38,318 bases of DNA from Promethearchaeota archaeon Loki_b31 (GTDB lineage Archaea > Asgardarchaeota > Lokiarchaeia > Sigyniarchaeales > SOKP01): NCBI GenBank assembly GCA_005222975.1, contig NJBI01000034.1:1-38318 (forward strand), given 5' to 3'. A program made the translations under genes and the position numbers. Below the pieces are notes generated by a model, which ran no database searches, was not told where the DNA came from, and saw only the letters and a list, made by a program, of their open reading frames with translations. This document shows positions 6,802 to 29,992 of this stretch, piece after piece. Position 1 is the stretch's first letter; every line of letters starts with the position of its first letter.

Positions 6802-7917
6802 TTAAGTTCCATAAGAGATTTCTTTAATATTATAAATATCGCTTGATAATTTATTTCCAATTTTTTTATTAGATATGTTCTTGTTACTAAATGATTGAAC
6901 GGGTGATATATCTTTTCCAAAAATCTGCGGTGATTTAATACCAGTTATAAGGAGCATAACTCTTAAATATCCCTCGTACTCATCGTTTACTCGGGCACCC
7001 CAGATTACCATCGCGTTGTTCACATCCATTTTTTCAGAAATTTTTTTTGCTACAGAATTTGCTTCTGCGAGGGTCATATCGTTTCCTCCACAAATATGAA
7101 TTAAAGCACCCTTTGCGCCGTCAATAGATACATCTAGTAATGGTGAGTTGAGTGCGTCTTCAATAGCCTCTTCCACACGGTTACTTTTATTGCCAGATTC
7201 ACCCACTCCCACAATTGCTACACCTCCCGTACTTAAAATGGTCCTAACATCAGCAAAGTCTAAATTAATTAGTGAAGGTAAAGAAATTGTTTCAGTTATT
7301 CCCTTTACCATCGTTGCTAAAACTTCATCGGCGACGCTAAACGCCTCTATGATCGGTAAATCTGGAGCAATGTCTAAAAGGCGATTATTATCGATTACTA
7401 CTAGTGTATCCGCATATTTCTTTAATTCATTAAGTCCCATTTGAGCTTTTTCTATTCGTCCTATTTCAGTATCAAACGGTAATGTGACTACGCCTACAAC
7501 TATTGCCCCTTCAAGTTTGGCTATTTCAGCTACTATAGGTGCGCTTCCGGTCCCAGTCCCCCCACCTTCTCCACAGGTAATAAAGACTAAATTAGCTTCT
7601 CTTAGTATCTTTGTTAAATCTTCACGTGATTCTTCTGCTGCTGCTCTACCAATGTCTGGATTACCACCTGCACCTAAGCCTCGTGTTAAATTTTTACCTA
7701 TTAACAGTTTTATGTGGGACTCAACGCTTTCTAAATGTTGGAGATCTGTATTTACTGCTACGCATTTTGCTCCCTTTATTCCTATTTTCATTAACCGGTT
7801 AATGGTATTGTTTCCAGCTCCTCCGCATCCAACAATTTTTATATTAGCGTAACCAAAATTTTCGCGAGTTGGTCTGATTACTTCTCTCTTTCGAGCATTT
7901 CTTATTAGAGATTCCAT
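6802..7917 (-). CDS. ftsZ: cell division protein FtsZ
   Basis: GCGGAGNNTINRL, GLGAGGNP, tubulin signature GEGGGTGTG, T7 loop INLDFADVR. Confidence 0.97.
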   Translation of the reverse strand: MESLIRNARKREVIRPTRENFGYANIKIVGCGGAGNNTINRLMKIGIKGAKCVAVNTDLQHLESVESHIKLLIGKNLTRGLGAGGNPDIGRAAAEESREDLTKILREANLVFITCGEGGGTGTGSAPIVAEIAKLEGAIVVGVVTLPFDTEIGRIEKAQMGLNELKKYADTLVVIDNNRLLDIAPDLPIIEAFSVADEVLATMVKGITETISLPSLINLDFADVRTILSTGGVAIVGVGESGNKSNRVEEAIEDALNSPLLDVSIDGAKGALIHICGGNDMTLAEANSVAKKISEKMDVNNAMVIWGARVNDEYEGYLRVMLLITGIKSPQIFGKDISPVQSFSNKNISNKKIGNKLSSDIYNIKEISYGT

Positions 7918-16596: not shown

Positions 16597-16712
16597 TAGA
16601 ATTCAAAGACTTATATAATTTAATAGAATTAAAAAAATGCTGTAAACTATATATTATATAATTCTCAATTTAAATAAAATTATAAAATCATTGTTTAATT
16701 GGTGAATAATCG

Positions 16713-17526
16713 ATTTCTGGTTATATAGGCAAAAGAATTAGATTAGAACGAATTTTTAATAGGGAAACAAATAAGACGATTATAGTTCCTATGGACCATG
16801 GATTAGCTGTAGGTCCTATTAAAGGAATTAAAAGAAGTTTAGGAGAAATGGTAAACAAAATAGCTTTAGGGGGCGCAAATGCCGTTTTAGGGCATGTAGG
16901 GATTCCATTATACGCCCATAGAGGATATGGTCCAGATATCGGCTTAATTTTACATTTATCTGGTTCAACCTCTCTAAGTCCCAAGTCAAATTATAAAGTT
17001 TTAGTAAATAATTTATTAGACGCAGTAAAATTAGGAGCCGATGGTGTATCTTTGCATATTAATATTGGAACAAAGGCAGATCCAGAAATGCTAGAAATTC
17101 TAGGAGTAGTTTCATGTGAATGCCGAGAGTTTGGAATGCCCCTTTTGGCTATGATGTATCCTAGAGGGGAAAATATCGAAAACGAACACGATGTTGAGGT
17201 CGTTAAAATAGCAGTAAGAGTCGCTGCGGAACTAGGAGCAGATGTTGTGAAAACTAATTGGACAGGAGACCCTGATTCTTTTAGTGAAGTAGTTGAGGGG
17301 TGCATGGCACCAGTAATTATCGCGGGAGGGGGTTAAGGCGGGGATTAAAGAACTTTTGGAAATAACTAAGCAATCTATAGATGTTGGAGGCGCTGGAGTT
17401 GCCTATGGAAGAAATGTATTTCAAGCGGATAATCCTACAAAAGTTGTGAAAGCGCTTTATCTAATTGTTCACAAAAATTATGAAGTAGAACAAGCCATTA
17501 CAGAAACAAACATAAAAGGTCTATAA
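16713..17526 (+). pseudogene. aroA': class I aldolase, 2-amino-3,7-dideoxy-D-threo-hept-6-ulosonate synthase-like; ATT start and +1 frameshift at the G5 run 17328-17332
   Basis: In-frame extension [47 protein letters not shown]; the C-terminus ELLEITKQSIDVGGAGVAYGRNVFQ...IKGL* lies in the +1 frame up to TAA at 17524-17526; may be a sequencing error. Confidence 0.8.
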
Positions 17527-29420: not shown

Positions 29421-29765
29421 TCATTTTTTATATGGTTTCTTCATCATCCCTTGTTGAATGATAATATTTTCTTCAGGGAAGCCCAAGTCAATTAAAAATT
29501 TTTTCAACTTGAACTTGTGGTCGCCTTGAAGTTCGATTAAATTTTCTCTAACAGTTCCTCCAGAAGCACATTTCTTTTTGGCTTGCGTAAGGATATCCTT
29601 TAAGTTTGCGTCTATATTTCCTTCGAAGGTGATAACTGTAACCACACGCCCCCATTTCCTTCGATCGTTAGAGATAATAATTTGTTGTTCATCTGCGCTT
29701 AAACTATCGCATATACATAGGTCTTTCGGAAAACTACATACCGGACAAATGTCTTCTTCTTTAAT
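29421..29765 (-). CDS. sui1: translation initiation factor aIF-1 (SUI1), probable ATT start
   Basis: Frame extends upstream of the track ORF: (I)KEEDICPVCSFPKDLCICDSLSADEQQIIISNDRRKWGRVVTVI...KKKCASGGTV....IELQGDH; an in-frame TGA lies four codons above ATT at 29765. Confidence 0.9.
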   Translation of the reverse strand: MKEEDICPVCSFPKDLCICDSLSADEQQIIISNDRRKWGRVVTVITFEGNIDANLKDILTQAKKKCASGGTVRENLIELQGDHKFKLKKFLIDLGFPEENIIIQQGMMKKPYKK

Positions 29766-29992
29766 ACTCCTTTTTCACAACCTTTATTATTGAAACTTAT
29801 TAAAATACAGTACTAAAAAATAATAGAACTAAATCTTATAAAAACCTTTTTTTATTTTGTTTTTGTATAATTTTAAAAATGTTAAGTTTTTATAAGGAGT
29901 TGATTAATTTGGTTTTTAGGTTTTATTATTAACAACACTATAAAAATAAATTCTTATTTAATATAATTAAAAAAAATAATTCATGAAAAAAA

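Follow-up and report, generated by a model that had tools for sequence, protein, structure and literature searches.

A probable AUU start codon fixed on the aIF1/SUI1 gene across a family of Asgard archaea, a candidate for feedback on start-codon stringency

The gene for the initiation factor aIF1/SUI1 of Promethearchaeota archaeon Loki_b31 very probably starts translation at an AUU codon (ATT, positions 29763 through 29765, minus strand), which is kept throughout the family of this organism without ever being exchanged for AUG, and which NCBI PGAP also takes as the start in relatives. The gene lies in a stretch of 38,318 nucleotides, herein called the window. The explanation that best accounts for the findings overall, to which we give a probability of about 0.5, combines a start at AUU 29765, an SD-like box upstream of it, selection that retains a near-cognate codon, and negative feedback of aIF1 on its own synthesis.

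The coding sequence (29421..29765, minus strand) comprises 114 codons from the ATT at 29765, followed by a TGA stop (29423..29421). Its 114-residue product contains a Pfam SUI1 domain (PF01253; 7.7e-15; 55.6 bits versus a cut-off of 25.5) and scores 108.7 bits against NCBIfam NF002096 (curated cut-off, 98), with profile position 2 falling on residue 4; that profile is labeled YciH, as the family is called in bacteria. Residues 5 through 103 align with residues 3 through 101 of M. jannaschii aIF1 (PDB: 4MO0; 3e-23), and the predicted N terminus lies within two residues of those of other aIF1 proteins. The N-terminal zinc knuckle (CPVCSFPKDLCIC, translation; CPVC...CIC; 29709..29747, minus strand) keeps all four Cys in every homologue used. 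With a domain above its curated threshold, a knuckle of the archaeal type (CxxC...CxC), and a full-length alignment to a solved aIF1, the product belongs to the SUI1 family, and the earlier note had correctly recognized an Asgard aIF1/SUI1 gene with its knuckle in frame. A search of the 3.52-Mb, 92%-complete assembly shows that the gene is single-copy. It is separated from an adjoining small GTPase gene by a 227-bp divergent intergenic region and is the first gene of its own transcription unit; therefore, no coupling to an upstream gene is available. Some other genomes of the family carry a second aIF1-like match with 55 to 63% identity (G005:C60:41202-41516, G007:C23:10882-11211, G121:C252, G060:C2, and G128:C101), which may reflect either a paralogue or contamination, the bins concerned being rated 4 to 9% contaminated.

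Read on the minus strand, the frame runs TTG(29780) TGA(29777) AAA AGG AGT ATT(29765) AAA GAA GAA GAC ATT(29750) TGT CCG GTA TGT. From the TGA at 29777 to the zinc knuckle there is no in-frame ATG, GTG, or TTG; the earlier note had read these codons exactly so. The first canonical codon after the stop is a GTG (29643..29645, minus strand), 43 codons in and past the four knuckle Cys (29747..29709). Given the codon usage of this genome, 43 codons without a canonical start arise by chance with P of about 0.19, and the gap by itself is weak evidence for a non-canonical start. It matters because the conserved N-terminal knuckle lies inside it and because every relative examined has the same arrangement; this recurrence also rules out a read or assembly error.

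The family comparison drew on 5' ends from 18 species of the genus, 60 loci from 12 genera of the family, and 68 loci from a pattern scan, which after removal of duplicates gave 84 distinct 90-nt contexts covering 11 or more genera. In 69 contexts an ATT occupies the same position behind an upstream in-frame stop, without a canonical start, and in three an ATC does so; a further four have the ATT one codon further from the Cys, also without a canonical start. ATT or ATC is required in these 76 of the 84. One context needs ATA, one has a GTG start, and six are ambiguous, with an in-frame GTG within the SD-like box (two genera with an 8-nt spacer; another with an ATA CCT type). Counted at the homologous position, there are 71 ATT and 3 ATC codons, 72 of these 74 without an in-frame canonical start. 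An ATG in close relatives, which the earlier note had named as the finding that would overturn the ATT start, occurs in 0 of the 84 contexts. The in-frame stop before the ATT is TGA, TAA, or TAG depending on the species; readthrough, stop-codon reassignment, and sequencing error are therefore excluded. Initiation at TTG 29780 with readthrough of the TGA, or with TGA as Trp, was rejected, many relatives having TAA or TAG between the box and the ATT. The family consensus reads AAAGGTTGTGA, nine variable bases, and then ATT AAA GAC GAC GAN ATT TGT.

The choice between the two ATT codons, which the earlier note had given as the only plausible starts, is informed by the codons between them. Codons 2 through 6 (K E E D I; 29748..29762, minus strand) show the conservation pattern of coding sequence in the family: their first and second positions are at least 90% conserved and the third varies (GAN GAN GAN). 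This 3-base periodic variation starts directly after the ATT and is missing from the spacer. Other Asgard aIF1 proteins whose starts are clear also have acidic residues before the Ile-Cys pair (VSDDEIC, VTDDEIC, MEEDIC, and MAEDIC). From the shared acidic stretch and the type of codon variation it follows that codons 2 through 5 are translated, and the start is almost certainly at 29765 rather than 29750.

The SD-like box AAAGGTTGTGA (29775..29785, minus strand) is about 90 to 100% conserved in the family, and its own TGA (29777..29775) is the in-frame stop. Between it and the ATT lies the spacer AAAAGGAGT (29766..29774, minus strand), which is 9 nt long in nearly all family members and 8 nt in two genera; its sequence is variable, lacks 3-base periodicity, and contains an in-frame TAA or TAG in many species. 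As 16S rRNA was not found in the assembly, the 3' end (...GGAUCACCUCCU) was read from three related genomes, two belonging to the genus and one to the order of this organism, which agree exactly. The box pairs with it as AGG..GUGA with a dG of -7.9 kcal/mol, which beats 85% of confident ATG genes (median, -4.0) and is near the value for confident AUH-start genes (those starting with ATT, ATA, or ATC; median, -7.6). The usual SD of the genome, as learned by a start-site model from 2,974 ORFs, is GGAGGTGA at -14 to -7; the aIF1 box is 3 to 4 nt further from its start, and only about 12% of strong-SD genes have spacing as long. This EM model of our own chose AGG 29771 by spacing and not the ATT, preferring the non-conserved AGG and AGT codons; the RBS score of the ATT was only 0.64. 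It passed over ATT 29765 because the box is 3 to 4 nt too far upstream.

Another signal had been proposed in the earlier note, namely the purine-rich AAAAAGGAGT with its GGAG. This part of the proposal did not hold up: the GGAG is not conserved, and the conserved element is AAAGGTTGTGA. As an SD, the GGAG (29770..29767) was rejected; it is present in a few species only (most relatives have AAAAAAGAGT) and lies 1 nt from the ATT. A riboswitch-like leader was likewise rejected, no conserved structure having been found: between -40 and +50, the RNAalifold prediction for 24 sequences contained 0 pairs, and the sequence of this genome gave z = -0.03. The regions upstream of 652 confident ATG genes have an A-rich tract (-24 to -14), the SD (-14 to -7), and an A-rich spacer, with no TATA peak at a fixed distance that would predict a transcription start; leaderless mRNAs therefore do not look prevalent in this genome.

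Near-cognate starts extend beyond aIF1. In the start-site model, ATT, ATA, and ATC starts account for 1.7 to 6.3% of genes depending on the posterior cut-off (roughly 2 to 5%), and together they outnumber the other 58 non-canonical codons combined. They lie 5 to 7 nt behind strong GGTGA-type SDs, and when 19 candidates were compared with Pfam, the domain in at least 11 began well before the first canonical codon. The candidates include a DsrE protein and an AMP-binding enzyme, together with genes for rpS11 (ATT, C17:19811), rpS4 (ATC, C17:20504), a Ras-type GTPase (ATA, C35:4005), an IF-2B-family protein (ATA, C44:2457), a dCTP-deaminase-like protein (ATA, C75:16820), an altronate/galactarate dehydratase (ATA, C23:16237), and a cytidylyltransferase (ATC, C74:23275). 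The ATC or ATA of rpS4 matches the ATG of relatives' ATG GGA GAT CCA codon for codon. These genes indicate that the organism really does use AUH starts. The window contains a second non-canonical start of its own (16707-16795, plus strand), where TAA TCG ATT(16713) TCT GGT stands 7 nt behind TTGGTGA and the first ATG follows 26 codons later at 16791; the N terminus of the product (...IIVPMDHG) resembles that of a DhnA-type aldolase/ADH synthase. Among other initiation factors, aIF1A starts with GTG (G000:C53:2279) and aIF2-beta with ATG (window position 238); eIF2-alpha (PF07541) had no match in this 92%-complete assembly. ARAGORN reported only 14 tRNA genes genome-wide, none of them tRNA-Met, which fits tRNA genes that are heavily split by introns in this genome.

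Four of the AUH-start genes served as controls. The rpS11 gene has ATT here; within the genus, two genomes have ATT and a third has ATG, and elsewhere ATG is found in 10 other genera and GTG in one genus; rpS4 has ATC here, ATC or ATA in three genomes, and ATG in seven genera. The IF-2B-family gene, ATA here, varies among ATA, ATT, and ATG within the genus and is ATG throughout the 11 genomes that represent the 10 other genera of the family sampled, and the cytidylyltransferase, ATC here, switches among ATC, ATA, ATT, and ATG in relatives. In total the controls have ATG in about 40 of 60 family copies and flip within the genus or family, versus 0 of 84 for aIF1; they were picked for their AUH starts in this genome, and the comparison is not tree-corrected, species not being independent samples. 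Over the same divergence, the third bases of neighboring aIF1 codons have undergone many changes. That no T-to-G change has occurred at the ATT points to selection against AUG, and the aIF1 ATT is likely to be selectively maintained. The earlier note had held that sui1 would not be special if ATT starts were too common genome-wide. Such starts do occur in roughly 2 to 5% of genes, yet the controls flip to ATG and the aIF1 ATT is fixed family-wide; as far as these alignments reach, aIF1 stands apart in having a non-AUG start that is fixed, even though AUH codons are used genome-wide.

Outside the family the start is more varied. In the sister family of the same order it is TTG in two genera, GTG in one, ATA in two, and ATG in one; one of the ATA genera has an alternative in-frame GTG inside an AGGTGA box. 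The ATT of the family aligns with ATA CCA AAA GAC (a variant found in two sister genera), TTG CCA AAA GAT, GTG CCA AAA, and ATG CCC AAG. A third family of the order, sampled with two genomes, has ATG in both. Beyond the order, 40 Asgard genomes from 20 families, with starts assigned by reading the sequences and not by the model, gave 21 with ATG, 9 with GTG, 8 with no canonical start, and 2 that are ambiguous; in the eight, the candidates positioned by an SD are CTG (two families) and ATA (three families). Weak aIF1 starts (AUU, AUA, CUG, GUG, and UUG) thus appear in about half of the Asgard families sampled. The alignment of sui1 5' ends across Asgard genomes that the earlier note had proposed bears out a non-AUG start at the level of the family, where it is fixed, but not for the phylum at large: with plain ATG in 21 of 40 genomes outside the order, a weak aIF1 start is not universal in Asgard archaea.

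From their position beside the P site, both eIF1 and aIF1 destabilize complexes that lack a perfect codon-anticodon match. The fidelity role of aIF1 and its binding to the 30S subunit are documented for the Sulfolobus and Pyrococcus proteins (PMC6237735, PMC4705826), and in vitro an AUU mRNA is rejected by the 30S complex under the action of Sulfolobus aIF1 (Hasenoehrl et al., summarized in PMC4705826). In the mechanism we propose, AUU 29765 would be the first codon translated, read as Met by initiator tRNA, and the bipartite SD-like box (AAAGGUUGUGA), 9 nt upstream and 3 to 4 nt beyond the usual distance, would position the ribosome; selection would retain the near-cognate start and exclude AUG. 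When aIF1 is abundant its own AUU would be used less and when it is scarce more, so that stringency would be held steady. If the rejection of AUU seen in Sulfolobus holds in Lokiarchaeia, an AUU-started aIF1 mRNA would be translated less at high aIF1. As autoregulation would lead one to expect, the start of the factor's own gene is near-cognate, and its weakness is conserved beyond that of other genes (a comparison not tree-corrected). We take negative feedback of aIF1 on its own AUU start to be the likeliest reason for this selection, and put it at close to an even chance. More speculatively, aIF1 might act as the sensor of a start-codon stringency homeostat that also sets the output of the other AUA-, AUU-, and AUC-start genes, a stringency regulon; we regard this extension as doubtful.

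The main rival to feedback is that the start at AUU 29765 is real while the weak codon and the long SD spacing only set a low, fixed output of a factor that is abundant enough, with no sensing of aIF1, a possibility that we take seriously but think unlikely. In this genome, an AUH start compensated by its SD is nothing out of the ordinary, aIF1 could be just one of the roughly 2 to 5% of genes that use them, and the initiation factors share no common start pattern (aIF1A, GTG; aIF2-beta, ATG). However, an ATG combined with a weaker SD could tune output equally well, yet ATG is found in none of the 84 contexts while the controls switch freely. Moreover, the gene affected encodes the very factor reported (PMC4705826) to discriminate against AUU; if that discrimination holds here, any AUU-started aIF1 mRNA would be sensitive to the level of aIF1. 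The remaining rivals question the start itself. Among these, initiation at an out-of-frame GTG at 29778 (GTG AAA AAG GAG TAT TAA), followed by a +1 frameshift or by termination and reinitiation at AUUAA, appears improbable. An NTG does overlap the in-frame TGA, the TAA of the resulting five-codon frame overlaps the ATT in most family members, and in two genera the 8-nt spacer puts the GTG in frame. The first overlap is expected about three times in four for an NTG before a TGA, however, and the second is an automatic result of the conserved ATT AAA. The GTG stands 2 nt behind the only G-rich stretch and has no usable SD (dG, -3.8; spacing, 0); the GTG is missing altogether from one genus (AAGGAAGGA...ATT) and is replaced by GGG in one species of another. 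Nor is a slippery site conserved, with AAAAAAG in the genus and TAAGACAGC or TAATAGAGT in others, and where a frame-0 TAG immediately precedes AGT ATT, as it does in some species, the shift window contains no slippery homopolymer run. With neither a shift site nor an SD, a +1 frameshift or uORF reinitiation from GTG 29778 was rejected as the main route.

Initiation at ATT 29750, the codon that adjoins the first Cys, possibly on a short-leader transcript from near 29760, is very improbable. The A/T-rich AATAATAAA at 29791..29783 could serve as a TATA box for such a transcript, and ATT 29750 is invariant in the genus. Ile or Val precedes the first Cys even in homologues with a clear upstream ATG, however, and the conservation of ATT 29750 is therefore uninformative about initiation; the third-position variation of codons 2 through 5, and the acidic stretch that they encode in common with other Asgard aIF1 genes, also speak against this start. 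No SD precedes it, the only pairing stretch (the non-conserved GGAG; dG, -6.6) ending 15 nt upstream, and no TATA peak of the leaderless type is seen genome-wide, the usual layout being an A-rich tract ahead of the SD. That a normal start is provided by way of a small intron or a missing 5' exon, or that the gene is an assembly error or a pseudogene, is scarcely credible. The genome does have intron-like inserts in protein genes, such as one of 29 nt in the P-loop of aIF2-gamma. Against these possibilities stand the lack of predicted conserved structure between -40 and +50 (0 pairs in 24 sequences; z = -0.03); the poor conservation upstream of the box, where there is no conserved ORF; an N terminus that already lies within two residues of other aIF1; the same arrangement in dozens of independent assemblies; purifying selection; and this being the only copy. 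The aIF2-gamma insert is a separate observation: on the minus strand of C32 in this genome (G000), at about 7215-7243, 29 nt split the P-loop into NIGLVGHVDHG and, in another frame, KTTLVKTLTG. It looks like a mini-intron in a protein-coding gene, and its MFE fold shows flanking exon pairing (CUAGUG/CACUAG) with no clean bulge-helix-bulge.

The start at AUU 29765 has been handled unevenly in annotation. PGAP proteins of relatives begin at the same ATT (MKDDDIC, named YciH), whereas Prodigal-type calls from JGI, ENA, and Logan begin at internal sites like GTG 29645 and give products of 69 to 90 aa without the knuckle; one ENA call reads through TTG TGA with TGA as Trp (MWKKSIKDDD). Prodigal-type calling shortens aIF1 and several percent of other proteins, and the truncated forms stand in public databases. 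Only AUG, GUG, and UUG are given as archaeal starts in reviews (PMC7531240), aIF1 autoregulation is absent from the reviews PMC7531240 and PMC4705826, and the eIF1 loop figures in PMC6237735 only as a eukaryotic parallel. Our literature search found no report of a non-AUG start or of autoregulation for an archaeal aIF1, which does not prove that none exists. The AUU start of aIF1 appears to be a new, archaeal variant of a regulatory theme known from IF3 and eIF1, with autoregulation itself plausible. IF3 in bacteria and eIF1 in eukaryotes limit their own synthesis via a weak start; the AUU of aIF1 is a testable candidate for a third case, located in the archaeal group closest to eukaryotes and tied to a lineage-wide use of near-cognate starts. 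If the more speculative homeostat reading is right, self-limitation of a SUI1 factor via its own initiation site would have arisen in archaea before eukaryotes and been inherited as the poor-context loop of eIF1.

Several known systems resemble this arrangement. The +1 frameshift of prfB (RF2) likewise concerns the gene of a translation factor in which an in-frame stop comes early and is overlapped by a start-like codon upstream; a shift of this type was rejected for aIF1, which has no conserved shift site, a variable spacer, and an upstream GTG without an SD. The characterized aIF1 proteins of M. jannaschii (4MO0), P. abyssi (5ZCY and 5JB3), and S. solfataricus are of the same family and length and share the basic-loop region, and the zinc knuckle found here is of the M. 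jannaschii type; the literature searched contained no mention of a non-AUG start or autoregulation of their genes. In E. coli, infC (IF3) has an AUU start with translational autorepression (summarized in PMC4705826). As with aIF1, the gene of a start-codon fidelity factor begins with AUU, a codon of the kind that the factor rejects, initiation is led by an SD, and the atypical codon is conserved among relatives. The folds of IF3 and aIF1 are unrelated, however, and the infC loop is proven genetically whereas that of aIF1 is only inferred; this archaeon uses AUH starts for a few percent of its other genes as well, and the aIF1 SD, a bipartite one, is unusually distant. Eukaryotic eIF1 (SUI1) negatively regulates its own synthesis through a conserved poor-context AUG (Ivanov et al. 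2010, PMC2964218, cited in PMC6237735). Here the protein is homologous, a weak initiation site is conserved on its own mRNA, and the proposed logic of stringency homeostasis is the same. The two differ in the form that the weakness takes: for eIF1 it is the poor Kozak context of an AUG reached by scanning, whereas aIF1 in this family would use a near-cognate AUU behind an SD, and other Asgard aIF1 lineages have AUC, AUA, CUG, GUG, or UUG in its place.
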